Assembly: GCA_965249555.1 (NCBI GenBank)
Contig: OZ252243.1
Location: 608,001-672,000 of the forward strand
Direction of reading: 5' to 3'
Origin: Nitrosopumilus sp.
Lineage (GTDB): Archaea > Thermoproteota > Nitrososphaeria > Nitrososphaerales > Nitrosopumilaceae
DNA: 64,000 bases
Within the stretch, counting starts at the first letter, position 1. Every line of letters starts with the position of its first letter. The translations under genes were made by a program, and so were the position numbers. Below are positions 12,951-52,535 of the stretch, one piece after another. The notes beneath the pieces are model-generated. The model was given only the letters and a program-made list of their open reading frames with translations, ran no database searches and had not been told where the DNA came from.

Positions 12951-13029
12951 GTCTCATCTTTAAATCTGCCAATAAAAAATCTTTGTGGTTTACAAAAGAT
13001 TTTATGGACAAAATACTGAATTTTTGTGG

Positions 13030-13123: not shown

Positions 13124-13137
13124 AGATTTAATTACTA

Positions 13138-15490: not shown

Positions 15491-15500
15491 CTCATATCAC

Positions 15501-17597: not shown

Positions 17598-17600
17598 AAT

Positions 17601-22942: not shown

Positions 22943-23539
22943 CTATCTTCCCTTTATTGCAAAGTCCTTTCGAAGTGGAGGCAAGTCTGCCCAATCTTCT
23001 GGCAAAAGTAATCTTCTGTTATCAGGATGGTTTTCAAAGAAAACACCAAACATTTCAAAAACTTCCCGTTCATGAAACTCTACACTGTAAAATATATCTC
23101 TAAGACTGGGAAGTTTTGTCGCGTCATTTCCAGGAATTGGATTTTCTTCTCGTTGGGCCCTAGTAGATAGGGCGATAATTTGTCTTGCTAATGAAGAATC
23201 AGAATAAGAGCCAATATGATAGACAACTTCAATCTCTTTGTCTTGCGGATAGTCTACGCCTGAAACAGATTCTACATGATCATAGTTTAATGCATCACGG
23301 ATGAACTCTGCAACGTCATGGATATTTTCCCGACTTGCACTAATTCCAATCCTATCTTCTTTAACAAATGTAACTGCAACTTTATCACCGAATTTTTCAG
23401 TTATCTTATCGGAAATTCCTTTCTCAAATGCAGGTAATTCTACTGATTCTTCTGGTTTTTTTGCTACGGGTTTAGGCGGAGGAGGTGTTTTTACTTCAGG
23501 TTTAGCATCAGCAGGAGGATTTTCAGTCTCGGCACTCAT
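22943..23539 (-). CDS. nuoC: NADH-quinone oxidoreductase subunit C
   Basis: EREVFEMFGVFFENHP..RRLLLP...PLRKDF motif. Confidence 0.95.
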   Translation of the reverse strand: MSAETENPPADAKPEVKTPPPPKPVAKKPEESVELPAFEKGISDKITEKFGDKVAVTFVKEDRIGISASRENIHDVAEFIRDALNYDHVESVSGVDYPQDKEIEVVYHIGSYSDSSLARQIIALSTRAQREENPIPGNDATKLPSLRDIFYSVEFHEREVFEMFGVFFENHPDNRRLLLPEDWADLPPLRKDFAIKGR

Positions 23540-24236
23540 TATACAAACTTCCTAGATGTCATACATTTTAGCGTTTATTTGGGATTTTATGTATATACCA
23601 GAAGATCGATATTGGGCAAGATCTGTCATTTTTCCAGATATTAGTATGTGATTTTACTATTAAAACAAATGGTTTTGAAAATTCAGCGATTGCTGGATCA
23701 GTTTTTGATAACGCTTCTTTGGTATTTCGGCATTGTGGAAACCATTCATTTTTGACACGTTTGCAGACTAGATTCATCTGTTTGGATCCATTGGAAATGC
23801 TTTGTGACAAGAAAAAAGAGAGGTCACAAACATGTGATGGTTCTCTCCAAAAATACCAAAAAACAAGATGTTAAAAAATGCAAAATCTGCAAACATCATT
23901 TTTTTCTTTTCTAATTATTAATTATGACAATTTCATCATCAAATTAGTAGAATATTTTATTTACACACAAAAGCTAAACCCCCATTTTAATTCTTCAAAA
24001 AAAATTTAGGATGTAATTACAGTTTCTTTATCAAGTTTTCTTTCAAGTTCCACTATAGTTGTTGAGTTAACATCTAAGAGTACATTTTACCAAATATAAA
24101 ATTTATCAGTATCTACTGAAAAAACGTGGGTTTTTCTTTTATGTCTACACCAGTTATTTGTGAAAGAGTAACAACAATATTATCTAAAGTGTAATCTGAT
24201 ATTCCTTCTTTAACAATGATTTGTAATTTTTTCAAG

Positions 24237-24467
24237 TTACTTCTCGACGATTGTCAGATCAACCAAATTGTTACCAAATTTCTTTTCAATCTCGTGTGAT
24301 ACTTTGATGGCATCTTCCCAACTTGAGAATGTTTTTAGTGCAGTATGATCATAACTTTTATCCTTTACAGTCTTGTTTTTAAAATCAGGCATTAAAAGTT
24401 GAGTTTTTTTGCATGAATCCTCATCAATACAAGTCAAACGAAATTCAAAAACAGGCATTAGAAACAT
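24237..24467 (-). CDS. Hypothetical protein
   Basis: 76-aa ORF. Confidence 0.4.
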   Translation of the reverse strand: MFLMPVFEFRLTCIDEDSCKKTQLLMPDFKNKTVKDKSYDHTALKTFSSWEDAIKVSHEIEKKFGNNLVDLTIVEK

Positions 24468-24971
24468 TCCTCCTTTAATTCCAAATAATAATGTAGGTTC
24501 AAACTAAACAATACATTCATCCCATAAACCCTCTCTAATTCTGTTTGGAATTGTTTGTTCTATTAACTGCTTTTCTATGAATACAGTTTTCATGATACAA
24601 ATCATCTGTTTCATTTAGATAGGATGTGGTTCATATATTTATGATGATCTTAATTAATATGCAGTTAAATATCAAACCAATTTTATTTCCTTATTATCAT
24701 AGGAATTATTTGAATATGGGTGTTCCAATCAGATACAAAACACCAATAAGAAATGACACATAGAATCTTGCTAGGGATTTTTATTTGTTTTGTAATCATT
24801 CCAATGAACAAAACATAATGAGATCCTTTGCTTTCTCTATTTGAATAATTTGAGAAATCGGTTAAAAATGAGAATTGATTATGTCCATGTCTCAATTATC
24901 TAATATTATAACTACAGGATCACATATAAAAATTTTAAAGATTTATACCATACTGATTATGTTTGTATAAT

Positions 24972-25946
24972 ATGAAATTTTTAGATGAAGATAGATTATT
25001 AGCAGAAGTAGAGTTAGAACCAACACAGGGTTCACGTTTCCAACCAACAGGATTCCCATCATTAGGATCTGCAGAATTCACAACTGTGGATAACGAAGGC
25101 AAAAATATTAACTCACTTTTAGTAGAATCTACACAATCAATGGCAAACAGATTAGAAGTTGTTTGTATGAATGATACAAAAACTGAACTTGTAGAAACAC
25201 TTTCTGATTTACCTGTAATAAAATTAAATGATTCAAATGGGAATTTTATAACAAATTCCATACTTGAAGCACATCGCATGAATTCATCATACCTACTAAA
25301 AGGAGAAAAAGGTAAATTGCTTCATAAGATATCAACCGATCTAGACATAACGGATAACAAAACACATGTTCCAAATATTTCAAAATTTGCAGAATTTGTT
25401 TTCAAATATGATACAAACTCCATTTTACACGGATTGTTTTTAGCTAACTCTGACATAGCAGGTGGTAGATACAAACTTACTCGTTCTCTTTCCTCATTTA
25501 TTGAAGCATCAAATATCAAAGTCAGTGTAAGTGGAGGAGTAAAGCTTGATCACATTGATCCAAAAGGTGGTGAAGGTGGAGCAGAAAAAGGATACGGGCA
25601 CATACCATACTCTAGAACAGAATACACAGCAGAATCAATAAAGGCATACTTTAGTATAGATTTGTCACTTATTCGTTCATATGGTCTATCTAATGTTGCA
25701 AATGAATTTCTATTGACATTTGCAATGTGGAAGATTCAATCTTTTCTTAAAACAGGACTACGACTTCGCACTGCATGTGATCTGAAAGTAAAAAATACCT
25801 TGGCTGTAACGTATCCAAACAACGTAACCATTCCAAGTCTAGATGAATTAGATACAGACTTGAGAAACAGTATAAAAAAATGTAAAAATGAAGGACTTTT
25901 TTGTACGGATCCGATAATCGTAGAACATATAGAGACAAAAAAGTAA
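24972..25946 (+). CDS. csb1: Type I-G Cas7 (Csb1)
   Basis: RFQPTGFP, LLVESTQSMANRLE, LEAHR and LRLRTACDL motifs. Confidence 0.93.
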   Translation: MKFLDEDRLLAEVELEPTQGSRFQPTGFPSLGSAEFTTVDNEGKNINSLLVESTQSMANRLEVVCMNDTKTELVETLSDLPVIKLNDSNGNFITNSILEAHRMNSSYLLKGEKGKLLHKISTDLDITDNKTHVPNISKFAEFVFKYDTNSILHGLFLANSDIAGGRYKLTRSLSSFIEASNIKVSVSGGVKLDHIDPKGGEGGAEKGYGHIPYSRTEYTAESIKAYFSIDLSLIRSYGLSNVANEFLLTFAMWKIQSFLKTGLRLRTACDLKVKNTLAVTYPNNVTIPSLDELDTDLRNSIKKCKNEGLFCTDPIIVEHIETKK

Positions 25947-25956
25947 TGGAACCAAA

Positions 25957-27429
25957 TTGTTTTGTATTAGAATCTGTTTTTTAAGTGGAGCTTATCATGC
26001 AACTCCATGGGGTAAACATGTCAACGAAGGAATTCCAGAATGGCCGCCATCTAGTTGGCGTCTTCTGCGTGCAATCATAGCGTCATGGAAAAACACATGT
26101 TCAGATATAACAGAGGATACAGTATGGCCAATTTTGCAAAAATTAATACAAGAACCCCCAGAGTATTATCTTCCAGATGCAAGTGTCTCTCACACACGTC
26201 ATTACATGCCAACATACAATAAACCAACATTAATCATGAATACATTTGTAGTTACGGGAGACAGACCGTTAGACATAATATGGAAATATGTGGAATTAGA
26301 AAAAAATGAAATTGATACTCTTGAAAAAATTTTAAAGAATATGCATTATTTTGGACGTGCAGAGTCATGGTGTACTGCAGGCATACAAGTAAAACCAAAT
26401 GAACCAAATTGTAGCAAGTTTGATGAACAGAGCATCCCAAAAGATGTAGAGTTGGTAAGAGTTTTGGTTCCAAACAAAGGTGTAAAATTTAAAGATTTTT
26501 CAGAACAATTCAAAGAATTAAAAAAAAATAATACAGACAACATAAGTGTAACTACTCAACAATTACAAGACAAGGGATTCATAGATCCGCCAGGTGCAAG
26601 ATGGATTCGCTATACCAGACCAGTGAATTGTTTTGAAGCAAAGACAAACGATACAGTCACAACTGAAACATTATCAAAAGTAACACTGATTCGTTATGCA
26701 GTAGTAAATACAGTTAGGCCAGAAATCAAAGACACATTACGCGTCGGAGATTTAGCAAGAACCGCTTGCATGTCCAGATACGGTAAAAAGAAAAATGGCG
26801 GTACATCAAAAATATTTTCAGGTAAAGATGAAAATAAAAAGCCGTTAGAAGGTCACAAACATGCTTTTTATCTACCAACATACGAGACACAGAATAAAGA
26901 GATAGATCATATTACCATTTTTGCAAAAGGTGGGTTTAATGCAGATGAGTTAGATGTATTATTCTCGTTGAAGAGATTATACCGATATGATTTGATGGAC
27001 ATACGCCTGATCTTTGAAGATTGTGGTACGGTTGATAATTTTACAGACATTCCCATATTTAAAAAAGAGCGTGTTTGGGTATCTACCACGCCGATGGTTC
27101 TTTCTAGACACATCAAATATCGCGGAACGGGATCAAACAAACATATGGTTGATGGTCCCAAAGAACAAATTTCTAATGAAATAAAACAAAGATACGATTC
27201 TTCATATAAAATTAAAGACATACAAATAGATGAAAAACCAACAAACATGCATAATACAAATATCAAACCATTTGATTTTTTCAGATGGCGAAATCATGGA
27301 AGAGTGGGAAGTGATAAGACATACAAAGTTAGATTAGAGTTTGAAGAACCTGTAAAAGGACCAATTACATTGGGATATGGATCACATTTTGGATTGGGCA
27401 TGTTTGTACCAGAGGATTATCATGAATAA
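25957..27429 (+). CDS. csb2: Type I-G Cas5/Cas6 fusion (Csb2)
   Basis: YHATPW, EWPPSSWRLLRA and GPITLGYGSHFGLGMF motifs. Confidence 0.93.
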   Translation: MFCIRICFLSGAYHATPWGKHVNEGIPEWPPSSWRLLRAIIASWKNTCSDITEDTVWPILQKLIQEPPEYYLPDASVSHTRHYMPTYNKPTLIMNTFVVTGDRPLDIIWKYVELEKNEIDTLEKILKNMHYFGRAESWCTAGIQVKPNEPNCSKFDEQSIPKDVELVRVLVPNKGVKFKDFSEQFKELKKNNTDNISVTTQQLQDKGFIDPPGARWIRYTRPVNCFEAKTNDTVTTETLSKVTLIRYAVVNTVRPEIKDTLRVGDLARTACMSRYGKKKNGGTSKIFSGKDENKKPLEGHKHAFYLPTYETQNKEIDHITIFAKGGFNADELDVLFSLKRLYRYDLMDIRLIFEDCGTVDNFTDIPIFKKERVWVSTTPMVLSRHIKYRGTGSNKHMVDGPKEQISNEIKQRYDSSYKIKDIQIDEKPTNMHNTNIKPFDFFRWRNHGRVGSDKTYKVRLEFEEPVKGPITLGYGSHFGLGMFVPEDYHE

Positions 27430-29782
27430 TTCACCAAACTACAAAAACTTTGAAGCTTTTTTTAAAAAAGCTACAGGATATGATCCCTATCCTTATCAGA
27501 TCAAACTTGCAGAATCCCAAATACCAGCAGTGATTAATGTACCTACAGGTGCAGGTAAGACAGAAGCTGCAATATTATCATTATGGATGTGGAGAAGGGA
27601 ATTAAAAGATGAAAATACACCAACCAGATTAATTTATTGTCTTCCCATGAGAGTGTTAGTGGAGCAGACCGTTCAGAGAGTGAGGAAATGGATCGAAAAT
27701 TTAGGATTAGATGATGTAATTGGAGTAATATCGCTTATTGGAGGTAGTAAGTATGAAGAATTCCAAAAACACCCCAGTAAAAAATACATCATCATAGGCA
27801 CACAAGATATGCTTATTTCAAGTGCACTTAATCGAGCATATGGAAAGAGTCCATATGCATGGCCCGCCTTTTTTGGTCTGTTTAATAATGACTGTATGTG
27901 GATCATGGATGAAATACAGATTATGGAAAATGGTCTCCCAACATCACTACAATTAGATGTATTTCGTAAGCAATTTAAAACATATGGATCATCAAAGACA
28001 GTTTGGATGTCTGCCACAATAAACAAAGATTGGCTGAAAACGATAAATTTTGACGGCATAAAGGATTCAGAGATTTGTAGTCTGGGTAAAGAAGATAAAA
28101 ATCATGAAGAGTTAAAAAAGCGCAACGAGGCAGCAAAAACACTTCACACCGCAGACATTGAATTTAAAAAATATGATAGCAAAGTTGTAAAATATCTGTA
28201 CAGTCTACACAAAAAAGGAACAACTACTGCCATCATGGTAAACACGGTTAAAAGAGCGCAAGAACTGTATGATCTATTTAAAAAAGAAGGATTAGAATGC
28301 AAATTAATTCATTCTAGGTTTAGAGAGAAAGACAGATCCGAATTAAATAAATGGATAAATAACTTGGGCAAAGAGGAAGTCATCATATCAACACAGGTAC
28401 TAGAAGCAGGAGTAGATATTTCTGTTCGTACAATGATCACAGAGATTGCACCATGGGCAAACATGGTACAACGTTTTGGAAGATGCAATAGAACTGGGGA
28501 ATTAGACCAAGCTGACATATACTGGATAGATCTACCTGACAAATTATTTGCACCATATGAAGAAAAAGATATGGAACTTGCAAAAGAAAAATTAAAAGAG
28601 CTGGACAACAAGTCAGTATCTCCAATTAATCTTCCAGACATCACAGAACAGAAAATTTTTGATGTCATACTACGAAAAAGAGATTTGGTGGATCTGTTTG
28701 ACAATGCATCTGACATATCTGGGAATTATGTAGATGCCTCAAGATTTGTACGTACAATTAAGCAGCAATTAAATGTCGAAGTATTTTGGAGAGATGATCT
28801 AACAAATAATGAAGAAGTGCAGAAACAAAACAGACATGAACGCAATGAGATATGCAGTGTTCCAATATATGATCTAAAAGAATTTCTAAAAAAAGCAAAA
28901 GTGGCATACTCGTGGAATAATGTAGAAGAGAAATGGGAGAGGATTAAAGCAGGTAAAATTTTTCCCGGACAAGTAGTTATGATAGATAGCAAAAAAGGAG
29001 GATATTCAAAAACATATGGATGGAAAAAAGAAATTGGAGAAAAAGTAGAGGCATGCCAAACATCAGATAAAAAAAATGATTCAAATGGATATGATGCACA
29101 ATCAGAATCAAAGAATCCAGTAACGCTAGAAGAACACACCAGTCATGTATCAGAAGAGATGAAAACCATACTAGCCAAATTGAAAATCATAGATAAGGAC
29201 ATCAAAGATATCATGACTACTGCTGCCAGATATCATGACATTGGTAAGATACACAATGTATTTCAAGACACATTAAAAAAAGGAATCATAGATAATGAGA
29301 TTGCCAAAACCAAAATATGGGCCAAGAGCCAAAAAATGAGTAAACATTCCATACCAGGTTTCAGACATGAGGTAGTCAGTGCACTAGTATATCTTAAACA
29401 ACCAGGCATAACACAAGATAAAAAATTGCAGAATCTTGTGGCATATCTTATAGTTTCACATCATGGAAAAGTTAGACTCTCATTAAGAGATGTAATTAAG
29501 AAAAAATATGAGGTAAAAGACCAGAAATATTTGTTAGGAATAAATGTAAATGGTGAGACCATACCAGAATTCTCTAGCGATGCAGTATCTGTCAAGGCAA
29601 CTGAAATAGACGTTTTATTAGCAAAAATTGGTCAAAACAATACATCAGAACCATCATGGGTAGAAAGAGCATTGTCTTTACGTGATGAGTATGGACCATT
29701 CCGTCTTGGATATCTTGAATCGTTACTCAGAGCAGCAGACACACTTGCCAGTCAAAAAGAGAGTGAAAGAAGATATGACTAG
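27422..29782 (+). CDS. cas3: Type I-G Cas3 (helicase with C-terminal HD nuclease)
   Basis: PTGAGKT, DEIQ, SAT and QRFGRCNR, followed by HDIGK...HHG at the C-terminus. Confidence 0.95.
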   Translation: MNNSPNYKNFEAFFKKATGYDPYPYQIKLAESQIPAVINVPTGAGKTEAAILSLWMWRRELKDENTPTRLIYCLPMRVLVEQTVQRVRKWIENLGLDDVIGVISLIGGSKYEEFQKHPSKKYIIIGTQDMLISSALNRAYGKSPYAWPAFFGLFNNDCMWIMDEIQIMENGLPTSLQLDVFRKQFKTYGSSKTVWMSATINKDWLKTINFDGIKDSEICSLGKEDKNHEELKKRNEAAKTLHTADIEFKKYDSKVVKYLYSLHKKGTTTAIMVNTVKRAQELYDLFKKEGLECKLIHSRFREKDRSELNKWINNLGKEEVIISTQVLEAGVDISVRTMITEIAPWANMVQRFGRCNRTGELDQADIYWIDLPDKLFAPYEEKDMELAKEKLKELDNKSVSPINLPDITEQKIFDVILRKRDLVDLFDNASDISGNYVDASRFVRTIKQQLNVEVFWRDDLTNNEEVQKQNRHERNEICSVPIYDLKEFLKKAKVAYSWNNVEEKWERIKAGKIFPGQVVMIDSKKGGYSKTYGWKKEIGEKVEACQTSDKKNDSNGYDAQSESKNPVTLEEHTSHVSEEMKTILAKLKIIDKDIKDIMTTAARYHDIGKIHNVFQDTLKKGIIDNEIAKTKIWAKSQKMSKHSIPGFRHEVVSALVYLKQPGITQDKKLQNLVAYLIVSHHGKVRLSLRDVIKKKYEVKDQKYLLGINVNGETIPEFSSDAVSVKATEIDVLLAKIGQNNTSEPSWVERALSLRDEYGPFRLGYLESLLRAADTLASQKESERRYD

Positions 29783-31865
29783 GATAACACTTGAGTGCAC
29801 ATCAACGTTACTATCAGACTATTTCAAAGCTCTAGGCATATTTCGAATCATGACAGAACAAAGCGATTCTAATATTACAGCATATTGGAGATATGATAAA
29901 TTTGTTTTGGAAACAAGCATGAGTGAAGAAGAAATTTTGGAGTTTATTTTAAAACAATACAAGCCGACGCCTATAATCACACCGTGGAGTTATAACAAAT
30001 ACATAAAAACAAAAGCATCAATCAAAACAAAATTAGATGCAAAAGATGATAGGTTTGAATCATATCGTACGGTAATACAAGAAATAGACAAAATTAATGA
30101 AATGTTCTGCAAGATTTTAAATCTAAATGAAATGAAAAAAGATACCATAACTAAAAAAACAAAGTTGTTATTTTTGCAACTATGTAGAAATAATTTTCCA
30201 GATGAAGCATTATCTTGGCTAGATGTAAATGTTGTGCTAGATGGAACAGATGCAAAATTTGCACCAATTACAGGATCGGGTGGAAATGACGGTAATTTTG
30301 ATATGGCTGAAAACTTTGTCAAGTATCTAATAGAGATGTTTGATCATAATGAAGAATCCAAAAACTTGCTGAAAGAATCACTCTTTGGAGGATCAAGTAA
30401 ATTGGAAGAAACAACTATGATAGGTCACAACCCAGATGGGAATAGTAGTGCAACATCAGGACAAGGTTTTGAAGGTAGATCACTGTCAAACAAGTGGGAT
30501 TACATACTGATGTTAGAAGGAATAATCTCGTTTGCAGGAAATCTGGCTAGACGTCAATCTCAAGGGAAAGGGAAAGCAGTATTTCCATTTACAACAGATG
30601 GCTCACATGTTGGCTATGCAACTGCATCAGATGATGAAAGGGATATCAGAGGTGAGATATGGTTGCCAATATGGAATAATCCTGCCACGTATAGAGAGAT
30701 CGCACATATGTTTAGTGAAGGACGGGTTCAGCTTAATGGAAAACAAGCTGGGACAGGAACAGAGTTTGCACGTGCCATAGTTAGTTTAGGTGTGGAAAGA
30801 GGGATATCGGCATTTCAAAGATTCAGTATTGTGCAAAGAAAAGGAGACGCATATTATTACATCAATGCAGGTAAAATACACACCGCAGATGAATCTGCAG
30901 TTTATTTATTAAGTGAGTTGGATAATTGGTATAATCCAATTTATCAAAAGAGCCAATCAAAAGAGAGTCCAGTGTCGATAAAACGGCATGTCAGAAATTT
31001 TGAAAACGAAGTGATGGAATTTTGCAAATATAGAAAAAAAGAACATCTCTTAAAAATAATGATTCAGGTTGGAAAGATAGAAAAACAGACATCATTGAGC
31101 AAAGAATTAAACCCATTACAGGAACTATCTGCGCAGTGGCTTGATGAGAGCTATGACAATTCAGTGGAATTTAGACTGGCAGCATCCATTGCATCAATAA
31201 AATCAGATAACAACGTAGGAGGAATACGAGAAAACTTGGAAGATATACAATATGGAGAAAGATGGGAACATAAAAAAGAATCAACAACATCTGTGTGGAA
31301 AGAAAATGATGATCTATTAAGGAATATGGGTCGTGTATTGCAAAGACGTGGAATAGATGGTAAAATAAAATCATTGGATGCCATACCAATTAAGGGGATC
31401 ATACCTGCAAGAATGGAGGATATTATAAAATTTCTCAGAGGAGAAGTAGATATGAGAAAAATAAATGACCTAGTTCTTCCGTTATCCATGATATCAATAA
31501 ATCAAAAGACAGAATATCCTTGGAAATCTATGAATAATGATGATATTTACGATATGCCAATACCAGAAGCATATATCATAATGAAGTTGATATGTCCTCC
31601 AGATAGAGATGAAAAAATCCCATACGACACATCAATACTAAATATGTTACATGCAGGAAGATTTGATGATGCTTATGCAAAAACAGCATACATACTACAT
31701 TCACACATGCGATCACCATTAAAATATTCAAAAATAAACGGCATGCCTAAAATATTGATTTCAGATATCATTAAAAAAAATATAATGGCGTCACTATTGT
31801 TTCCAATTTCAAAACATGATAGACAGAAAATGTTGCGTATGGTTACAGTTCAACAAAATTCATAG
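29775..31865 (+). CDS. csx17: Type I-G Cas8 (Csx17/Cas8g)
   Basis: YFKALG, YKPTPIITPW, GSGGNDG and GEIWLPIW motifs. Confidence 0.9.
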   Translation: MTRITLECTSTLLSDYFKALGIFRIMTEQSDSNITAYWRYDKFVLETSMSEEEILEFILKQYKPTPIITPWSYNKYIKTKASIKTKLDAKDDRFESYRTVIQEIDKINEMFCKILNLNEMKKDTITKKTKLLFLQLCRNNFPDEALSWLDVNVVLDGTDAKFAPITGSGGNDGNFDMAENFVKYLIEMFDHNEESKNLLKESLFGGSSKLEETTMIGHNPDGNSSATSGQGFEGRSLSNKWDYILMLEGIISFAGNLARRQSQGKGKAVFPFTTDGSHVGYATASDDERDIRGEIWLPIWNNPATYREIAHMFSEGRVQLNGKQAGTGTEFARAIVSLGVERGISAFQRFSIVQRKGDAYYYINAGKIHTADESAVYLLSELDNWYNPIYQKSQSKESPVSIKRHVRNFENEVMEFCKYRKKEHLLKIMIQVGKIEKQTSLSKELNPLQELSAQWLDESYDNSVEFRLAASIASIKSDNNVGGIRENLEDIQYGERWEHKKESTTSVWKENDDLLRNMGRVLQRRGIDGKIKSLDAIPIKGIIPARMEDIIKFLRGEVDMRKINDLVLPLSMISINQKTEYPWKSMNNDDIYDMPIPEAYIIMKLICPPDRDEKIPYDTSILNMLHAGRFDDAYAKTAYILHSHMRSPLKYSKINGMPKILISDIIKKNIMASLLFPISKHDRQKMLRMVTVQQNS

Positions 31866-31945
31866 ACAGAAATAGAGTTACAATATAAAGATTCAACATT
31901 TTTACAAGTTGATGAATTTTATAGATTTACAGACTTGTTAAGCAA

Positions 31946-34900
31946 TCTTCAATGAAGCCATAATTTTTTGTTATGGCAATCAGTGTAGATACTTTGTTCC
32001 ACATATCAACTCTACTAGGCTTCAAGAGAGTTGTAACTTTATCGTTACAGAAATTTGGTGGTCATGTGCCATATCAGAACGCCCTGATGTTATGCTTCAA
32101 TGGGGCTGTAACTTTATCGTTACAGAAATTTGAGAATAAATCCAGTAATAAATGGATTACCAGTTCCAGCGCTTCAATGGGGCTGTAACTTTATCGTTAC
32201 AGAAATTTTATGCGCTATGTGTTATGTTTGTCATACTCATGTAGCTTCAATGGGGCTGTAACTTTATCGTTACAGAAATTTCACAAATTGTAATACAATA
32301 AGGGTACTATAACGGTTGCTTCAATGGGGCTGTAACTTTATCGTTACAGAAATTTTATGCGCTATGTGTTATGTTTGTCATACTCATGTAGCTTCAATGG
32401 GGCTGTAACTTTATCGTTACAGAAATCACTCGGATGTTGTTTTCCCTGCACGTCTGATATACAGAGCTTCAATGGGGCTGTAACTTTACCGTTACAGAAA
32501 TTGGCTCCAGCTTTGGTAATCTCAAGAATGATCTCGCCACGCTTCAATGGGGCTGTAACTTTATCGTTACAGAAATCACTCGGATGTTGTTTTCCCTGCA
32601 CGTCTGATATACAGAGCTTCAATGGGGCTGTAACTTTACCGTTACAGAAATTGGCTCCAGCTTTGGTAATCTCAAGAATGATCTCGCCACGCTTCAATGG
32701 GGCTGTAACTTTATCGTTACAGAAATGGCTTAATCAAAGATGTTATCTCAATGTCCGTATATTATCAACTTCAATGGGGCTGTAACTTTATCGTTACAGA
32801 AATATAAAGAGGAAGCTGAGGGTTTCACAATCGATTTTCTAGCTTCAATGGGGCTGTAACTTTATCGTTACAGAAATTTTGTGAGGTTTGAAGTTTGAAG
32901 TGGACAGTTTCCCAAGCTTCAATGGGGCTGTAACTTTATCGTTACAGAAATTCTGTTATCTTTGATTTTTAGTTTGATTTTATCTTCTTCAGCTTCAATG
33001 GGGCTGTAACTTTATCGTTACAGAAATCTAAAAATGTTTTGACTGCTGTCGGCGTGTAAGCCGGGCTTCAATGGGGCTGTAACTTTATCGTTACAGAAAT
33101 TTCCATCAGCTCCAGTTTCATCTTTACCAAATGCTTTGCTTCAATGGGGCTGTAACTTTATCGTTACAGAAATTTCTCCAGCCGGATATTGATAACCGTG
33201 AGCCTTCATGCTTCAATGGGGCTGTAACTTTATCGTTACAGAAATTTCGAAAAGCCAATTAGTAAACTTGGTACGACTCACCTGCTTCAATGGGGCTGTA
33301 ACTTTATCGTTACAGAAATTGTAAGTTACAGGATAACGCAATAAATCTATGCTCAGCTTCAATGGGGCTGTAACTTTATCGTTACAGAAATACTTTATCA
33401 CGATTACGGTTTAGATAGTCAAGGACAAGCTTCAATGGGGCTGTAACTTTATCGTTACAGAAATAAATGAATCAGCGAATAGTTCGACATCAAATTTCTT
33501 GCTTCAATGGGGCTGTAACTTTATCGTTACAGAAATCTGATGATAACATCTTTGCTGAATTTCATGTTCATGCTGCTTCAATGGGGCTGTAACTTTATCG
33601 TTACAGAAATCATGAGTGATTTGTTGTCCTCGAGTTGGTCCTCCATGTGCTTCAATGGGGCTGTAACTTTATCGTTACAGAAATGATACAACTTGAAAAT
33701 ATTGCAAAAGCAGAAGCACGCTTCAATGGGGCTGTAACTTTATCGTTACAGAAATTGGAAAATCAAGCTTCAAAATTAATGGCTACAACATCGCTTCAAT
33801 GGGGCTGTAACTTTATCGTTACAGAAATTTCCCTATGGACCTTCCTTTGCAGGTCCTTGTATTTCTCAGCTTCAATGGGGCTGTAACTTTATCGTTACAG
33901 AAATGCGGCAGCCAATCCCGACGGCTTGGCTTCCATCATAGACGCTTCAATGGGGCTGTAACTTTATCGTTACAGAAATGTAGTAATTGCATTCATCTGC
34001 ATTTGACTTGCACCACCGCTTCAATGGGGCTGTAACTTTATCGTTACAGAAATTTCGGCTTTGAAAATTGCTAATGCTTTAGATTTTTTGCTTCAATGGG
34101 GCTGTAACTTTATCGTTACAGAAATCTTGATGTCTCAAACAGCAAGAGTTCAAACTAGATTAGCTTCAATGGGGCTGTAACTTTATCGTTACAGAAATAT
34201 AGAACGGTTATCAGGTCAAAGAGCGTTAAAAGTAGCTTCAATGGGGCTGTAACTTTATCGTTACAGAAATTTGGATAGCGATTGGATAGCTATGACAAAG
34301 CAACTGGAAGCTTCAATGGGGCTGTAACTTTATCGTTACAGAAATCTGCATCAGTAAGAAATAGTAGATTGTCTACAGCCGTTGCTTCAATGGGGCTGTA
34401 ACTTTATCGTTACAGAAATGATGGATCAGGCTATACCAGGGGTATTGGGTCAGGGATGCTTCAATGGGGCTGTAACTTTATCGTTACAGAAATTTAGTGT
34501 TACTGAAAATTCTAGGTTAGGATGGTCCAAAGCTTCAATGGGGCTGTAACTTTATCGTTACAGAAATTTTGAAAAAGAAACTTTGAAAGAAGACAAAGAG
34601 AGAGCGCTTCAATGGGGCTGTAACTTTATCGTTACAGAAATCTTAGGTTGTAGAACTCAAAGAACAGCTGACATTATCGCTTCAATGGGGCTGTAACTTT
34701 ATCGTTACAGAAATGTCAGAATTAGTTTGAGTAAAAACACTACCTTTTCTCGCTTCAATGGGGCTGTAACTTTATCGTTACAGAAATTTAGCATACAAGA
34801 GATAGCCTCCGATACCAACCGCTCCTGGCTTCAATGGGGCTGTAACTTTATCGTTACAGAAATTTCTCAAAATGAAAAAAATTGTTAACAATGTCCAAGC

Positions 34901-35538
34901 TTCAATGGGGCTGTAACTTTATCGTTACAGAAATTTTGAGCCTTTCAATTACACTAGTTAAAATTTTAGATGCTTCAATGGGGCTGTAACTTTATCGTTA
35001 CAGAAATCACCAAGTCGTGCAATACCTCCACCAGGTCCTCCTGGCTTCAATGGGGCTGTAACTTTATCGTTACAGAAATTTGATTGTTTCGACAAGATTC
35101 CAACTGACACCTAGATCCTGGAGGCTTCAATGGGGCTGTAACTTTATCGTTACAGAAATTAGGATATCAGCGCCACGACTTAGGCCCGCTGCTAAATTTG
35201 TGCTTCAATGGGGCTGTAACTTTATCGTTACAGAAATATGGTATACAAGCAACATATCCGTACGAAGTGTGTATTGTCTACGCTTCAATGGGGCTGTAAC
35301 TTTATCGTTACAGAAATATCGAATTTAGAAAACTTGTCGCAATTAGAACATTTATGCTTCAATGGGGCTGTAACTTTATCGTTACAGAAATTTTTATAGA
35401 GCTATAAAGCCTAATATAAACCCTAAATGCTTCAATGGGGCTGTAACTTTATCGTTACAGAAATTTCTGTTTGTTCTTTTTTAGCCTTGTCAAGACTACT
35501 TTGCTTCAATGGGGCTGTAACTTTATCGTTACAGAAAT
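31946..35538 (-). CRISPR. Type I-G array: 49 repeats (two degenerate at the left, trailer end) and 48 spacers of 35-44 nt
   Basis: 36-bp repeat ATTTCTGTAACGATAAAGTTACAGCCCCATTGAAGC (minus strand) with CTGTAAC/GTTACAG stem; orientation from the ATTGAAGC 3' end, degenerate left repeats and AT-rich leader next to cas2. Confidence 0.98.
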
Positions 35539-35690
35539 GGGGTCATTTTCTCTAAAACCGTTATCATGTTTTTGTTTCTAGTTGTTTTTCAATTGTTATC
35601 TGACGATTCAAGCAAATCATAGACATTGCTGTGGTATGATATTTTTTTCATATATATTATATCTGCGAGAGTATTATCATACTTACCTTG
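35539..35690 (-). promoter_or_regulatory. CRISPR leader
   Basis: AT-rich non-coding stretch between cas2 and the first perfect repeat, with a TATA-like element. Confidence 0.7.
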
Positions 35691-35691
35691 A

Positions 35692-35801
35692 CTTGTAACC
35701 CATCGCATTTTCTTTGCCCTATATCACTTGCGCAAAGCTCTTGATAGGGCTTCTTGTCAGGCATCTTGTAACCCATCGCATTTTCTTTGCCCTATATCAC
35801 T
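35692..35801. repeat. 37-bp direct duplication flanking a 36-nt insert
   Basis: CTTGTAACCCATCGCATTTTCTTTGCCCTATATCACT at 35692-35728 and 35765-35801. Confidence 0.95.
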
Positions 35802-36079
35802 ACGGATCTCTCCCTTTCCGTATCCATTTGTGCCCCTATTACTGATATTCTTTCTTTACTTTTATTTAAGGAGCCAAGATTAATTATCAAAATTTTATCT
35901 TCAACCATATTCATTATATCCTCTAACTCTTCTTTCATAATTATTATTTCCTTGTAGTTAAGATCACACATAAACACAGAATATTGTACAGGTTCCCCAT
36001 ACCCCTTCATCTTTTTATGTATCTGTATCAATCGTTGCGGATCATGTATATCGTAACATACAAAGTATCTATTGCGCAA
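35792..36079 (-). CDS. cas2: Cas2
   Basis: YFVCYDIHDP.RL...GYGEPVQYSVF; TTG start assumed. Confidence 0.93.
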   Translation of the reverse strand: MRNRYFVCYDIHDPQRLIQIHKKMKGYGEPVQYSVFMCDLNYKEIIIMKEELEDIMNMVEDKILIINLGSLNKSKERISVIGAQMDTERERSVVI

Positions 36080-36083
36080 ACCT

Positions 36084-37769
36084 TCATCTTGTCCTAAATG
36101 CAGGATATGTTGGAATCTCTCCAAGAATATGTCTGGCAAGTAATCTTGTTTGAGTTTCCATTATGCGTTTATAGCTGGCAGCATAACCCAAAAGTGGATG
36201 AATAACAACAGAATCCATACGTCTCTCATATGCAGTTATCACTGTAGAACGCCCTCTATTGGTAAGGTTTGTTCCAAAGTCGGTCTTTATCAAATCTGAT
36301 TCATTGATTTCACCGTTATTGATAAGCGTAATACATGTAGAATCTGCTACAATTGGTCTGAATTCCTCGATCATATCAAGTGCAAGTGCGGGTTTCCCAT
36401 ATTTTGGCATATGAAGAAATCCCAGATAGGGATCAAGACCTACTCTACTAACTGTAATCATTGCATTCCTTGTCAACATTGCATATAGAAATGACATAAT
36501 TGCATTAACTGGATCCTTTGGAGGTCTTCTGTTTCTTCCATTAAAATCAAAAGCCGTTGATTCAGATTTTATCATGCCATTAAATTCTGAAAAATATATG
36601 CGTGCAGCCATTCCCTCTATTCCAAGAAGAGTATCATATTGTTTTACAGTACATGCACGTTGTGCAAGTATGTTCATCTTGTGTATCTTATCTATAGGGG
36701 GAGATTTGTGGTTTCTACGTAGCATTGTCATGCAATTTTTTATTTTTCCAAACACCATCTGACGAGCTATCCCAATGGATGCATTTTTAACATCATATTT
36801 TTTATGCTGTTTAATTCGCAGTTCTATATTTTTATGTGAAAGTCCTGTAGTAATACCCGTAAACCATCCTCCATATGTCATGTAACAGATAGGAATATTT
36901 CGCTTGCTTAACTCCCTTATTGCTTGTGTTGTGATCTGGATATTTCCAAATAGTGTAATTTCTGAAATGTCTATCAATCTAATCTTCTTTATTATTGTAT
37001 CTTTTAATTTTACATGAATGCAATCATTTGATTTTGTAATATGTGCTCCCTGTTCCTGTATGTATACTGGTATGGTGTCATTTCTTATTGGATACATTCT
37101 GCGTATCTGGTCCTTGTTTATTTGATGAGTCTCATCTGATAACAAATTGACTTCATCAGGTAGACATATTCCCACAAGGGAACATCTTGGACATTTCGGA
37201 CTGTCAACCAACGGAGCAGGTATTGTATATGACTTTGCCATTTCTTTCATCTCTTTGATCATCTGTAATGTTTTTTTTACTGTTTGATCATCTAGATTAA
37301 TTTCTATTCTTTGCTTTGATGCAATATAATAAACAAAACCCTTTGTACATGTGTATCCATTTGCACGTAGTAAAAGTCCTTGAGCACATACTTGTATGAT
37401 GTGATCATCATATGTTCTGTTAGGAGTATTGGGAGTGCTGCCACGTTTGTATTCTATTGGTGTTGCAACGTTTCCATCTAATTCAAGTAGATCTGTTTTA
37501 GATATCAATCCAAGCTCTGTATCAGACAAAGTAACTGATCTGGCATGAATCTTTTCTACTGTGATATTATCTTTATCGGTCTTTTGTTCAAGCATTTTTC
37601 CTCCTGACGGTTTGTCTACATTTCTATGCTGATATTTGCCGTCTATCACATCTTTGTTGGATTCAAATTCCCCTTGAACCCATTCCATATATGCAAGTCG
37701 TTTACAATATACGAATTGTGTTAGCATTCTTACTGGTATAAGATTTGAATTAACACTTGATGTACTCAT
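36084..37769 (-). CDS. cas1: Cas4-Cas1 fusion
   Basis: YCKR, PIEYKRG and CPRCSLVGIC (Cas4); GIEG.AAR.YF, RNRRPPKDPVNA and DMIEEFRP (Cas1). Confidence 0.95.
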   Translation of the reverse strand: MSTSSVNSNLIPVRMLTQFVYCKRLAYMEWVQGEFESNKDVIDGKYQHRNVDKPSGGKMLEQKTDKDNITVEKIHARSVTLSDTELGLISKTDLLELDGNVATPIEYKRGSTPNTPNRTYDDHIIQVCAQGLLLRANGYTCTKGFVYYIASKQRIEINLDDQTVKKTLQMIKEMKEMAKSYTIPAPLVDSPKCPRCSLVGICLPDEVNLLSDETHQINKDQIRRMYPIRNDTIPVYIQEQGAHITKSNDCIHVKLKDTIIKKIRLIDISEITLFGNIQITTQAIRELSKRNIPICYMTYGGWFTGITTGLSHKNIELRIKQHKKYDVKNASIGIARQMVFGKIKNCMTMLRRNHKSPPIDKIHKMNILAQRACTVKQYDTLLGIEGMAARIYFSEFNGMIKSESTAFDFNGRNRRPPKDPVNAIMSFLYAMLTRNAMITVSRVGLDPYLGFLHMPKYGKPALALDMIEEFRPIVADSTCITLINNGEINESDLIKTDFGTNLTNRGRSTVITAYERRMDSVVIHPLLGYAASYKRIMETQTRLLARHILGEIPTYPAFRTR

Positions 37770-38112
37770 ATGTTTTGAAATTATTTTTCATATAAATAAA
37801 TCAATATATTGATGAGATAATTACTAAATGAGATAGATACAGTATCAATTATTGCTGTTTGAATTTCAGGATTATGTAACAATTCATCTCTCTCTAATTC
37901 TTGATTGAATTGCACTTGAAGAATATGAGTAATACTGAATTACTTTTTTGATTTCTTTAGACTTTTCTCGTATCTCTCAAATACTTTATCATCTCTTTTG
38001 CTCCATGGTTACTCTTCTTTGAGTTTGGTTTCTTCCATAGTTATATTATAACTATTTTGTTATTCAATTGCTTAAGCTTTGGTGATTTTGAAAATATAGG
38101 TCTCGATACCCG

Positions 38113-38637
38113 TTATACAAACTTTCTAGCCTTCATTCTCTTGATTTTTTCTTGCAACAAAATACATCCTTGGATGAGAGTTTCAGGTCTAGGCGGACAG
38201 CCAGGAACATAGACATCGACTGGAATCACTCCGTCAATTCCCGGAAGTACATTGTATGAATCAAAATACAACCCCCCAGTAATTGCACAAGCTCCCATAG
38301 CAATTACATACTTTGGTTCTGGCATTTGATCATAAACTAGTCTGAGACGTGGTGCCATTTTTCTTGTAATAGTTCCTTGAACAACAATTAGATCACATTG
38401 TCTAAGTGATCCAAATGCCTCAATGATACCAAATCTTTCAACATCATATCTAGGACTTGATGCTGCACCAAATTCAACACTGCAGCAAGCCGTTTCAATG
38501 TGGACAGGCCAGAGTGACCAAATTCTACCCCAATTGATGGCATAGCCCAATGGTTTGCCGATTGCCCGCTCTAAAATGTCCCCTAGCTTTCCTACAAAGA
38601 CATTTGCATTTTCTGGCGTTACTAAATCATTAAGCAA
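38113..38637 (-). CDS. nuoB: NADH-quinone oxidoreductase subunit B
   Basis: TACCSVE, MGACAITGG and VPGCPPRPE motifs. Confidence 0.96.
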   Translation of the reverse strand: MLNDLVTPENANVFVGKLGDILERAIGKPLGYAINWGRIWSLWPVHIETACCSVEFGAASSPRYDVERFGIIEAFGSLRQCDLIVVQGTITRKMAPRLRLVYDQMPEPKYVIAMGACAITGGLYFDSYNVLPGIDGVIPVDVYVPGCPPRPETLIQGCILLQEKIKRMKARKFV

Positions 38638-38676
38638 TCTTATCCCCTATCTCATAAATGCAATTTATATAAAAAA

Positions 38677-39051
38677 CTACCATATTCTTCGCCTCCCAGA
38701 CTGATACAATGCAAATGCCATTGCGCCAAACATTATAGCTAAAAATCCCATCATTGGCAAAGTTGCACTCTTTGGAAGTTCCAAAAGGGCACTTCCCCAG
38801 GCATACAGGAAGATTGCCATGACATCAAAGACTACAAACATCAGAATGTAGGGATAATACTGCATCATAAAGTGAGTCCGGCCTTCGCCTGACGGGACTT
38901 GACCGCATTCCATTGGTAAAAATTTCACAGGATTGTTTATTTTTCGAGGAGAAATCATCCTAGAAATAACTAAAGCCGGAGCCATAGCTGCTACGGCAAA
39001 TCCAAACATCAATACAACAATACTGTAATTGCCCGCTAATTCTCCGACCAA
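38677..39051 (-). CDS. nuoA: NADH-quinone oxidoreductase subunit A
   Basis: PMECGQ and YYPYILMFVVFDV motifs. Confidence 0.95.
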   Translation of the reverse strand: MVGELAGNYSIVVLMFGFAVAAMAPALVISRMISPRKINNPVKFLPMECGQVPSGEGRTHFMMQYYPYILMFVVFDVMAIFLYAWGSALLELPKSATLPMMGFLAIMFGAMAFALYQSGRRRIW

Positions 39052-39102: not shown

Positions 39103-40025
39103 TCCCATACGAAATCGTCTCCAACCCTACTGAGGACACTTACTAGCGTGCTTTGCTGAATCAGGACATCTCAGATATGCTTTGCATCTTATACTTTCGT
39201 TGTGTCAGTTCATGATTTTGTGTACGATACACTTTCAGAATTTGTTAGCATGTACCCGGATTATTGCAAGCATCCGGTCTTGCAGCTGCCACCTTTGCCT
39301 TTTGTTTTCCTCTTCTCTTTGCAATTCTGAAATAGAATGATTCCATTCTTTCATCAAATCGTACTATAGTATTTGCAGCCTCTACCATTGCGTTACGTAA
39401 CCATGCAGAACCCCTCTTTGTTATTCCGCCTCCTCGGTGCACATCTGCGCTGTCCCTGTGCGATGGTGCAAGTCCTGCATATGAGACTAGTTTTTCTGCT
39501 GTTGCAAATCTGCTGATGTCAACTATCTCTGAAATTATTGTCAATGCCGTGACATAGTTTATTCCAGGAATGGTCATTAGCAGTCTTGTTTTCTCATCCT
39601 CATTGCTAATTGTTGCAATCTTTATCTCAATTGTGTTGATCTGTTTTTGCATCATATCTATGCTGTCAAGATATGCATCCATTGCCATTCTGTCAACCTC
39701 ACTCAGATTAATTTCATGCAACCATCGTACTCCTTTTTGCGAGAATGTCTTTGTGGGTGTAATCATATTTTGCAAGTATTGCATAAATCATGTTTTTGTG
39801 TTTTGATACATTTCGCACGCGATTCAGTCTGGTTCTTACCAGACTGTATAGGTCTCTATAGTATTTTTCTGGTACGAATGAGCTGTACACCATGTCTGCT
39901 CTTAGCAAGTCTGCCAATACGTCTGAATCAAGTTTGTCGTTTTTTATCTTTGCCTGTGCAATTATCTTGGTCTTTGCAGGATGTGCGAGAACTGTATCAA
40001 TTCCATGGTCTTCTAGTGTGTCATG
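39103..40025 (-). mobile_element. IS110-family element, frameshifted and 5'-truncated transposase plus 3' non-coding end
   Basis: LMTIPGI, SYAGLAP..RDS and ITKRGSAWLR motifs; KIKNDKLDS..LADLLR fragment; end sequence repeated at 56507-56645. Confidence 0.85.
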
Positions 40026-40910: not shown

Positions 40911-41925
40911 ATGCCTACCTTATTAACAACCAGAGATCGAATTAGTTTTGAGGATAAAATACAGACAAAAGCAGTCAATACGCAGAAAACATCCCAGTCA
41001 TCAGTAAGAAACTTTGAGAGATTTTGCAAGGAAAAGTATGACAAATCAATGGAGGAGATAATATCAGAATATCACAAAGTTGAGATGGATTTAATCTATG
41101 AATCACTGCAAGAATGGATAAACTGGAACAATACAAAGGTTCATTCAAACAGCATTCCTACACTGTTTTCATATCTCAAAACATACCTAAGATATCACAA
41201 GATAAGAATTACAAAAGAGGATGTGGTAAAACAGCTGAGTTTACCTCACAAGGTCAAAGAGGAGAAATATCCATTGACAAAAGAGGAGATCAGAAGCCGA
41301 TGATTTTTTGTTTGATATTGAACATGATTACCTGGGAGAAATATCCATTGACAAAAGAGGAGATCAGAAGGATACTGCAAGTATGCAATAAGAATAACAC
41401 GATCAAGATTCTGGCACAGTTATCAAGTGATATGAGAAAAGGGGAATTGCTCCAGCTGAAAAAAAGAGATCTTGGACAAAAAAGAATCATGGTAAATATT
41501 CCTGCAAGTATTACAAAGACAAAAAGATCAAGGGTGACTTTTTTTAGCAGAGAGATAATACCTTTACTGATGCCGATTCTTAGAAGGCTCTGGCTGATGA
41601 TGACAGAGTGTTTTTTCGTGGAAAGCTAAATCCTGCAAACATAAGCAATCACTACCAGCTGATTCTGACAGAGTATCTAAAGAGGACAGGGCTTGATCAA
41701 AAATATGAATCCGGACGTCACAAGATAACAACACACAGCTTTAGGGCATTTTTTATCACAAAGGTGTCTCTTCATGATCCAAACCTTGCAAAGTACTTTG
41801 CAGGACAGGAACAAACAAGAGACCTGCTGATGTATGACATATTGACAGCAGATGAAAAGTGAGAAAACTATATCAAATTTGAGCCTGATTTGTTGATATG
41901 GGATTCAAATAAAAGCGTAAGGTAA
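40911..41925 (+). pseudogene. Tyrosine recombinase/integrase pseudogene
   Basis: MRKGELLQL, TKTKRSR and HSFRAFF motifs in three frames; disrupted by a 74-nt duplication-insertion and further lesions. Confidence 0.88.
41261..41370. repeat. Exact 36-bp direct duplication flanking a 38-nt insert
   Basis: GGAGAAATATCCATTGACAAAAGAGGAGATCAGAAG at 41261-41296 and 41335-41370. Confidence 0.95.
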
Positions 41926-46819: not shown

Positions 46820-48307
46820 CTAATTCAACCATTCCCCACCTCTAATTCCCCATACATTATAATTTGCTTGAGCCAAATCTCCTGCTTCATTTAGTGTTGT
46901 TGGACCTATTGCTCCTATGTAATTCTCTGCAATTCCTGGGAGTGCAGCTTTAATCACACTAACATCACTGCTTTGGGTTTCAAGCATTGCCAGTCCAATT
47001 AACCACACGGCATCATATGAAGAATGCACAAATACGTTAGGAACCATGCCAAGTACTTCAGTTATATGAGATTGCACTTTGTTATATTTTGGGTTTTCTG
47101 TAATTGCAAACGCAACTGATGTAAATTGAACATTAGTTGAAAATTCTAGTGCTATTGGATCATCAATCAGACTGTGGTCTTTTGTGGTAGCACCTGGTCC
47201 GAACCATCTTACATCATGTAATATGTCATATTCGGATGCTGATTGAGTAAACTGTAGAATTTCCGCAAATCCCAAAAACATGACACCAACTTTGTCTGCT
47301 CCATATTCATCAACATGTTCTTGTACTTGTTGAGCTAATAGGGAAACTGATACAGAAAATTCTGGAGTCTCCGGATTGTAGCGAATAGGTTCGCCTACTA
47401 TTCCCCCTCTTTTGATAAATGAATCAGTTGTAGACTTACTTAGACCATCACCCCATGTGTCTCCCCTATATACTGGAACCAATACATCGATTCCTTCATG
47501 TTTCATTAGCTTTGCAAGTGCAGGTCCTTGCTTAGAGTCATCTGGAATTAGACGAAATACACTATCATTTGTAATAGCTAATGCAGGTGCAGTAGAACAA
47601 CAGCTAACTAACAACATGTTGTTAGAGTCCGAATAACCTTTCATGTGGCTAACATTGGAACTAGTTTCAGGTCCTATTACAATTCCAATTCCTTTGGCAT
47701 AAAGTGATGTTAGTTTTTCTAGTGCAGTTACTGGATTAGTTGCAGAATCTTCTGTAATCATTTTGAGATGCCATGGGGCATCAATGTCTTGCAAATGTTT
47801 GTTAAACTCGGATACCCCAAACTTTGAGCCCTCATTGCTTCCTAGTCCATGAGTTGACCAATCACCTGTTAGTGGAACGATTGCTCCGATGGTTACTTCT
47901 CCGGACAGTCCTGCTGTTTCTTCCATCATTGGATCTTTCATCATATCATCCTCCATCATTGGATCTTTCATCATATCATCCTCCATCATTGGATCTTTCA
48001 TCATATCATCCTCCATCATTGGATCTTTCATCATATCATCCTCCATCATTGGATCTTTCATCATATCATCCTCCATCATTGGATCTTTCATCATATCATC
48101 CTCCATCATTGGATCTTTCATCATATCATCCTCCATCATTGGATCTTTCATCATATCATCCTCCATCATTGGATCTTTCATCATATCATCCTCCATCATT
48201 GTTTCATCTACATCCATAACTTCTGTATCCGTACCTAATACTCCATAAGCAACACCGATAATAATTAGAATAACTACAACACCAATTCCTATTTGTTTAG
48301 TACTCAT
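46820..48307 (-). CDS. ABC substrate-binding protein (LivJ-like) with Met-rich repeat; probable 3' frameshift
   Basis: N-terminal anchor; IGAIVPLTG, IGPETSS and FRLIPDD motifs. Confidence 0.85.
   Translation of the reverse strand: MSTKQIGIGVVVILIIIGVAYGVLGTDTEVMDVDETMMEDDMMKDPMMEDDMMKDPMMEDDMMKDPMMEDDMMKDPMMEDDMMKDPMMEDDMMKDPMMEDDMMKDPMMEDDMMKDPMMEDDMMKDPMMEETAGLSGEVTIGAIVPLTGDWSTHGLGSNEGSKFGVSEFNKHLQDIDAPWHLKMITEDSATNPVTALEKLTSLYAKGIGIVIGPETSSNVSHMKGYSDSNNMLLVSCCSTAPALAITNDSVFRLIPDDSKQGPALAKLMKHEGIDVLVPVYRGDTWGDGLSKSTTDSFIKRGGIVGEPIRYNPETPEFSVSVSLLAQQVQEHVDEYGADKVGVMFLGFAEILQFTQSASEYDILHDVRWFGPGATTKDHSLIDDPIALEFSTNVQFTSVAFAITENPKYNKVQSHITEVLGMVPNVFVHSSYDAVWLIGLAMLETQSSDVSVIKAALPGIAENYIGAIGPTTLNEAGDLAQANYNVWGIRGGEWLN
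47922..48200 (-). repeat. Perfect 30-bp tandem repeat, 9 copies, encoding MMEDDMMKDP
   Basis: Unit CTCCATCATTGGATCTTTCATCATATCATC. Confidence 0.97.
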
Positions 48308-50169: not shown

Positions 50170-50721
50170 TTGAGTAAAAGAAAAATTGCAATTATTTCAT
50201 TTTTAGTAATTGTTGGAATTATCATAGGCTCATCAATAATATCATCTAATCAAGATAAACCAGTTGCAGAAAAACAAAAACAGCCCATAAAAGATTATTA
50301 TGAAAATGGACGGTTAAAAAGTGAAACACAGTATCATGAGAATGGAAAAATAGAATGGGCAAGACTGTATTATGAAAATGGACAAAAGGAATGGCACAAG
50401 TCATATTATGAAAATGGTAAATTATGGGTTGAAGCAAAACATCGTGAGAATGGAAAAGGAGACTGGCTAAAGGAATATTATGATAATGAACAATTATACC
50501 GTGAATACAAATACGATGAGAATGGGATTGAGAGATATTTGAAGTACTATTATGAGACTGGACAATTACACTATGAAGAACAATTCTATGATAATGGAAA
50601 TAGTATGTCACAAAATCTGTATTATGAGAATGGGCAATTAAGAAATGAAAAACATTATGACAAGTATGGAGAATTAGAAAATGAAAACCATTATGACAAG
50701 AATGGAAAATTAGAGAATTAA
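50170..50721 (+). CDS. MORN-variant repeat protein (YwqK-like)
   Basis: Repeated YYENG units; N-terminal TM. Confidence 0.85.
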   Translation: MSKRKIAIISFLVIVGIIIGSSIISSNQDKPVAEKQKQPIKDYYENGRLKSETQYHENGKIEWARLYYENGQKEWHKSYYENGKLWVEAKHRENGKGDWLKEYYDNEQLYREYKYDENGIERYLKYYYETGQLHYEEQFYDNGNSMSQNLYYENGQLRNEKHYDKYGELENENHYDKNGKLEN

Positions 50722-52467: not shown

Positions 52468-52535
52468 AGATTTTAACGTGCATAACGAATGCACGTTAAG
52501 ATTTTAACGTGCATAACGAATGCACGTTAAGATTT
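52468..52535. repeat. Tandem 31-bp duplication of an 11-5-11 palindrome
   Basis: TTAACGTGCAT-AACGA-ATGCACGTTAA twice. Confidence 0.9.

Follow-up and report, generated by a model that had tools for sequence, protein, structure and literature searches.

Very probable off-target spacer integration at the 3′ end of cas2 in a type I-G CRISPR-Cas locus of Nitrosopumilus, with sister scars across the genome

What has placed a spacer-sized piece of unrelated DNA between two exact copies of the end of a cas2 gene? The question arises in a Nitrosopumilus genome (archaeal, 2.23 Mb, 34% G+C, one contig), within a window of 64,000 nucleotides—the whole stretch of DNA analysed, in which positions are counted unless a genome is named—that holds a complete type I-G CRISPR-Cas locus. 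A reading made from the sequence alone had proposed a natural off-target spacer integration, and this proposal is supported by the geometry of the scar, by an empty site in the same-genus genome G162, by the intact integrase gene adjoining it, and by 17 sister scars. Very probably, the cas2 scar records one off-target integration of a spacer by the neighbouring type I-G Cas4/Cas1 fusion together with Cas2.

The scar has three parts:

35692-35728, no strand assigned: copy 1 of the duplicated target, array-proximal, an exact 37-nt repeat
35729-35764, no strand assigned: the insert of 36 nt, a putative misplaced spacer, unrelated to its flanks
35765-35801, no strand assigned: copy 2 of the duplicated target, cas2-proximal, an exact 37-nt repeat

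The two copies lie 73 nt apart from start to start, and the 37-bp exact duplication around an unrelated 36-nt insert, as first described, is borne out, with the insert agreeing letter for letter with the one originally quoted. The bases outside the two copies differ (left a/t, right t/a), and hence the exact repeat stops at 37 nt; one boundary base, already called ambiguous, may match by chance, which gives the alternative of a 36-nt duplication around a 37-nt insert. An exact 37-mer at any spacing of 64–84 nt has a chance expectation of 2e-15 in 64 kb. The period of 73 nt had been equated with one repeat plus one spacer, and it is indeed typical of the adjacent array (36-nt repeat; spacers mostly 36–39 nt). 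The duplicated sequence was also correctly distinguished from the CRISPR repeat, to which it is at best 13/36 identical without gaps, within the range of random segments.

The scar sits among the following features of the type I-G locus:

24963-31865, plus strand: effector genes cas7g, csb2, cas3g and cas8g/csx17
32019-35538, minus strand: type I-G array, 48 repeats (36 nt each) with 47 spacers
35539-35691, minus strand: remainder of the leader, 153 nt, from the scar to the first repeat
35792-36139, minus strand: cas2, intact (TIGR01573 and PF09827)
36084-37769, minus strand: cas4g/cas1g fusion of 561 aa, the proposed integrase (NF049935, 731 bits; cut-off 560)

Read on the minus strand, the I-G repeat ends in ATTGAAGC, which indicates that the array is read on that strand and that the leader is 35539-35791, directly after cas2. 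A degenerate repeat marks the low-coordinate (trailer) end of the array, and its spacers measure 35–44 nt (38 nt in 13, 37 nt in 11, 39 nt in 7, and 36 nt in 6; n = 47). The scar lies where the leader meets cas2, across the cas2 stop codon, directly beside intact cas4g/cas1g and cas2 genes. Copy 2 carries the genuine cas2 stop (35792-35794) and the last two codons, and copy 1 holds the last cas2 codons and stop once more, in silent form. With the target restored by the duplication, the C-terminus of Cas2 remains SVVI*, as in genomes G009 and G014, and the protein is unchanged by the scar. An AT-rich, TATA-like stretch in the leader remainder is conserved in G162 and may be the promoter. Since the scar lies on the cas2 side of this conserved part of the leader, it probably leaves the array undisturbed, and probably does nothing itself.

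Other features of the window were recorded alongside. The I-G island, of approximately 14.5 kb, interrupts a row of NADH dehydrogenase genes (22943-39051): nuoH, nuoD, and nuoC extend to 23539, and the row continues with nuoB and nuoA at 38113-39051, all on the minus strand. Just past nuoA are an IS110-family transposase fragment and a tyrosine-recombinase gene in overlapping open reading frames (ORFs; 39245-39784 and 40911-41862). The array itself has internal duplications, with one spacer present twice (32171-32426 region) and a two-unit repeat-spacer block duplicated exactly at 32391-32726 (period 150, 100% identity). Further along lie a perfect 30-nt tandem repeat of 9.3 copies at 47922-48201 (100% identity), a coding repeat with a 36-nt period and YYENG-like units at 50296-50718 (probably a MORN-type repeat protein, with similar repeats in G162), and a 31-nt unit with its own inverted repeat, perfectly tandem-duplicated, at 52468-52529.

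The filled form of the site is present in contigs of four public sequencing runs from two studies, some of which may be the source of the assembly; in run X4, from the second study, there are 0 differences over 35699-35801. The scar is therefore not an artefact of one assembly. These public data are k-mer contigs, and they show the filled form only, since empty and filled alleles look alike in them: the 37-nt duplicate exceeds the words at which the contigs apparently break. No joint is reported in these contigs. An exact search with the scar 37-mer returned no second place in its own genome and no match in the genome-contig or metagenome-contig collections, and thus no empty allele from the same species was found there.

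Evidence that the 73 nt are a later addition comes from relatives. Among 151 genomes of the genus searched (the present genome, G000, included), 13 match the cas2–leader stretch, of which G162 is nearest (84% identity in cas2, approximately 80% in the leader). Its alignment is collinear but for one 75-column gap, accounted for by one copy, the insert, and a 2-nt indel. G162 has the target once and lacks the insert, which is the empty single-copy allele that the sequence-only reading had suggested looking for in relatives; the 73 nt are thus not ancestral but were inserted later, with duplication of a target of repeat length. In G009 and G014 the leader has diverged too far for a gap to be placed, and leader lengths alone were compared: 178 nt and 177 nt, respectively, against 253 nt in the window, or 180 nt once the 73 nt are subtracted.

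A single integration would produce this arrangement as follows. The complex would carry a prespacer of approximately 36–37 nt and make two staggered strand-transfer cuts 36–37 bp apart, not at the two ends of the first repeat but in non-CRISPR DNA. The attacked site would be 153 bp upstream of the leader–repeat junction, across the cas2 stop codon. Gap repair would then copy the 36–37 bp between the cuts and leave target copy, spacer, and target copy in that order, and with the target regenerated, cas2 would retain its native last codons and stop.

The cas2 scar is not alone. Curation of the 2.23-Mb genome yields 18 scars, the cas2 scar included, with duplications of 28–39 nt (median 36), inserts of 32–43 nt, and periods of 64–75 nt; the two copies are without mismatch in 11 of the 18. 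The spacing stands out before curation as well: 12 of 46 isolated exact repeat pairs of at least 20 nt fall at 70–74 nt, against 6 or fewer in every other 5-nt bin, and when mismatches are tolerated and arrays excluded, spacings 69–76 account for 24 of 64 rows (101 spacings scanned). Candidates dropped as tandem or protein-coding repeats lie at genome positions 119078, 162023, 280554, 728772, 915940, 1864123, 2136402, and 2154811, and those dropped as true small arrays at 1607941/1608006 and 1884690. The last of these (genome 1884690-1884798) is an orphan mini-array in which two exact I-G repeats enclose a single 37-nt spacer; it lies among ordinary host genes, 1.24 Mb from the cas genes and with another scar 2.6 kb off at 1882077. 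A provirus context for it was considered and is not supported.

Two further scars fall within the window:

41261-41370, no strand assigned: sister scar 2, an exact 36-nt duplication with a 38-nt insert, splitting the tyrosine-recombinase gene; empty in genome G154
56919-57022, no strand assigned: candidate sister scar 3, a 31-nt duplication (1 mismatch) with a 42-nt insert, period 73

For scar 2, the orthologous site in G154 is uninterrupted and aligns with a 74-column gap; for scar 3, no empty site was found. Two other sister scars lie in multi-copy sequences, whose paralogous copies reveal the empty state by being collinear on both sides of single gaps of 71 and 75 nt (identity 202/216 and 170/201). 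Within 25 kb of the I-G array there are 3 of the 18 scars against 0.43 expected (p = 0.01), an excess that could reflect local enzyme concentration or an insertion-tolerant region. All seven scars in long intact ORFs have a period divisible by 3 (69, 72, or 75 nt), compared with 2 of the 11 others (Fisher p = 0.002), and four of the seven sit within repeat-protein ORFs of more than 3,200 codons. These giant ORFs, built of 246–249-nt repeats, occupy genome positions 3600-21233 and 509159-518896, and the four scars they contain are in frame.

Compared with the CRISPR repeat, the 18 targets have a mean best identity of 14.4/36, against 14.5 for random segments, and they resemble neither the repeat nor the leader–repeat junction. 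No 5–7-mer is enriched in them after correction for the number of tests (best p 0.002 among 630 six-mers), and the bases at the target boundaries show no clear bias. In G009, two scars (contig C1, 1744491 and 1800775) have different inserts in targets that are reverse complements of one another and belong to a multi-copy, hairpin-containing sequence; either one target family was struck twice, or this is a preferred target.

Sister inserts are mutually unrelated (insert-to-insert matches of 10 nt at most), and in 8 of the 18 scars the insert is copied, at essentially full length (31–36 nt), from elsewhere in the same genome. The matched lengths are 32/32, 32/32, 35/35, 36/36, 31/33, 32/33, 31/32, and 31/36, and the matches end within 1–3 nt of the insert ends. 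The sources include the genes for an Na/H exchanger, an ammonium transporter, tRNA-His, and an HTH protein, and one is a multi-copy short element. A mobile-element origin of the self-derived inserts was rejected, the sources being ordinary genes and this one multi-copy short element. The eight self-matches among 18 scar inserts compare with none among the 47 array spacers (Fisher p = 9e-6), a difference that fits with self-matching spacers being harmful within an expressed array. Host fragments held between duplicates that are not repeats would give no crRNA and hence would be tolerated.

For the cas2-scar insert itself, the viral or metagenomic source that the sequence-only reading had in mind did not emerge: there is no exact match in viral or metagenome contigs, in scans by exact match that would miss a diverged protospacer. 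The same insert has no match of at least 16 nt in its own genome, none in 150 congeners at up to 3 mismatches, and only chance-level matches in a phage collection (E = 0.4). The TTN protospacer-adjacent motif (PAM) proposed earlier fared no better, being without enrichment at the sources of the eight traced sister inserts (3/8 against approximately 1.5 expected). TTN is the PAM of another type I-G system. Spacers of the I-G array have no match in the phage collection from which the PAM of the present system might be read.

Whether scars accompany an intact adaptation module was followed in relatives, scanned identically in two 400-kb blocks (800 kb) each of G009, G162, and G002, with candidates curated by eye. 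G009, which has an intact Cas4/1 of 555 aa, yields 19 candidates in 800 kb, with duplications mostly of 36–37 or 33 nt and inserts of 32–45 nt. Four of these inserts match elsewhere within the G009 sample, and one has 35 nt in common with spacer 12 in the I-G array of G009 itself, an overlap that links this off-array insert directly with the repertoire of spacers. G162 yields 0 candidates in 800 kb. Its cas4/1 runs through three reading frames, the frame changing twice within the Cas4 part (G162, contig C1, 1177679-1179361), and its cas2 and large arrays look intact. G002 has no Cas1-like match and still yields 1 candidate in 800 kb. Pooling gives 37 events over the 3.03 Mb from genomes whose module is intact and 1 over the 1.6 Mb from the other two (p = 3e-6, from four related genomes and partial samples). 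Scar counts thus suggest a link to intact cas4/1, across four related genomes of which three were sampled only and of which the one without Cas1 has a candidate of its own.

Could the scar have arisen without CRISPR adaptation at all? Such an origin would comprise the footprint of an insertion sequence (IS) or transposon, the action of a casposase, a break repaired with a templated insertion, or a tandem duplication with a replaced middle, and it is very improbable. The region is rich in mobile elements, with the IS110-family fragment and a broken recombinase within 6 kb of the scar, but target duplications made by IS elements are far shorter than 36 bp, and the IS footprint named at the outset as a possible refutation does not fit an insert whose ends are not inverted copies of one another (it lacks terminal inverted repeats) and a 37-nt duplication of CRISPR-repeat length. 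Casposon target duplications are approximately 14–15 bp, with a multi-kilobase element as cargo; at 37 nt the present duplication is unlike these, and the genome has no casposase gene and no third Cas1 gene. Decay of a tandem duplication cannot leave 37/37 flanks around an unrelated middle. The eight host-derived inserts are what templated repair insertions would be expected to give, and the G002 candidate has a like geometry in a genome lacking Cas1; against this, however, duplication and insert lengths both match the CRISPR unit, over 18 events with unrelated inserts, and 35 nt of one G009 insert recur in a genuine array spacer.

The genome's Cas complement is two Cas1 and two Cas2 genes, with both Cas1 genes beside arrays, and off-target integration by the second pair (genome 1615392-1616569) has an equally slight probability. 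This pair looks intact and adjoins an array of 30-nt repeats with a 66–67-nt period. The second CRISPR locus as a whole (genome 1607944-1616569) consists of a 3-repeat array (1607944-1608117), with 35–36-nt repeats ending in ATTGAAAC, and a main array of approximately 60 repeats, each of 30 nt (1609802-1613830), together with a cas1 and a cas2 belonging to this locus. In five sister scars the duplication measures 28–32 nt, and one of the five, at 29 + 35 = 64 nt, comes near the period of the main array; a few such sister scars might come from the second module. At cas2, however, the 37-nt (or 36-nt) duplication fits the 36-nt I-G repeat and not one of 30 nt, which favours the I-G module, and the scar is 153 bp from the I-G leader–repeat junction and approximately 970 kb from the second module. 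The 28–39-nt spread of duplications across the 18 scars would reflect either a loose ruler or a contribution to some events from the second module or another process.

Least probable of all is an inherited or transferred vestigial array of another repeat family, with two repeats and one spacer: the repeat–spacer–repeat form and the presence of other small arrays in the genome (the 3-repeat array at 1607944-1608117 and the 2-repeat I-G orphan at 1884690) would suit it, but one "repeat" holds the last cas2 codons and stop, conserved in relatives, G162 has a single copy at the same place, and the 37-mer is found nowhere else in its own genome or in the genome-contig and metagenome-contig collections.

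From sequence evidence, we infer that the type I-G Cas4/1–Cas2 complex was the responsible enzyme, and its off-target activity has counterparts in other systems. Citing papers describe off-target integration and neo-CRISPR units with overproduced type I-E Cas1–Cas2 of Escherichia coli (Nivala, Shipman, Church 2018, via 10.1101/148544, PMC7054753, PMC11788318), and one terms natural evidence from two other species circumstantial (10.1101/148544). By these accounts, the E. coli units and the present scar share a spacer-sized insert, a repeat-length duplication of non-CRISPR DNA, and a position outside the array. They differ in that the E. coli events followed laboratory overproduction, whereas the present scar is fixed in a wild archaeal genome and involves a type I-G Cas4/Cas1 fusion, with approximately 18 events per genome, 8 of 18 inserts host-derived, and empty sites in relatives.

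For the type I-G Cas4/1–Cas2 complex, Dhingra and Sashital (2023, PMC10504553) report Cas1 trimming the non-PAM end for leader-side attack and Cas4 trimming the PAM end for spacer-side attack. The present enzyme belongs to the same family (NF049935), and a 36-nt duplicated unit with a spacer of approximately 36–38 nt agrees with canonical integration as set out there. Canonical integration, however, attacks the leader–repeat junction with a PAM-bearing prespacer, whereas the target of the scar is non-repeat DNA 153 bp upstream.

Among archaeal integrases, Pyrococcus furiosus Cas1–Cas2 also places spacers at non-CRISPR sites in vitro, and these off-target sites share features with the repeat (PMC6698737), unlike the 18 targets here, which have neither repeat likeness nor a motif. 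Archaeal histones reduce off-target integration in vitro (PMC13748974), and it is possible that the high scar number here is due to a changed host factor such as histones. Ectopic spacer acquisition within arrays of Streptococcus thermophilus (PMC7999890, PMC5338259) likewise puts a spacer away from the leader-proximal repeat; there, the insertions are at internal true repeats, whereas the scar here is in non-CRISPR DNA. A Cas1-like integrase is also found closer by, as the family 1 casposase of Ca. Nitrosopumilus koreensis (PMC8464041), and casposon integration resembles the present case in that a Cas1-family integrase makes a target-site duplication. The present genome differs from the casposon case in its 37-nt duplication, in having no casposase gene, and in having two Cas1 homologues that are both beside arrays.

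The literature search, whose reach stopped short of Nivala 2018 itself, found no report of natural type I-G off-target integration, nor of natural events of this kind in this archaeal group. The cas2 scar is a natural case of a known mechanism, unusual by the number of scars that accompany it. Its interest lies in that number, in the host-derived inserts, in the selection filter, and in recurrence in a second genome: this is a clean example from nature, for which a relative has the empty site, with approximately 18 sister events and approximately 19 more in 800 kb of G009.

A catalogue of such scars opens the natural error rate and target choice of the type I-G integrase to study. It bears on the cost of autoimmunity, since self-derived inserts are seen outside arrays only; on selection, since intact genes show in-frame insertions only; and on whether new CRISPR arrays can begin by off-target integration. 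Beyond the single scar, a wider proposal is somewhat favoured on balance: that the type I-G Cas4/1–Cas2 complex may act as a chronic, genome-wide insertional mutagen in the genus, with dozens of fixed integrations per genome, many of them copies of host genes, with self-copies surviving only outside arrays, and with some adding 23–25 codons in frame to giant repeat-protein genes. If so, CRISPR adaptation would measurably supply new coding sequence, along with units from which new arrays could be seeded, and genomes would give a direct reading of its natural error spectrum.
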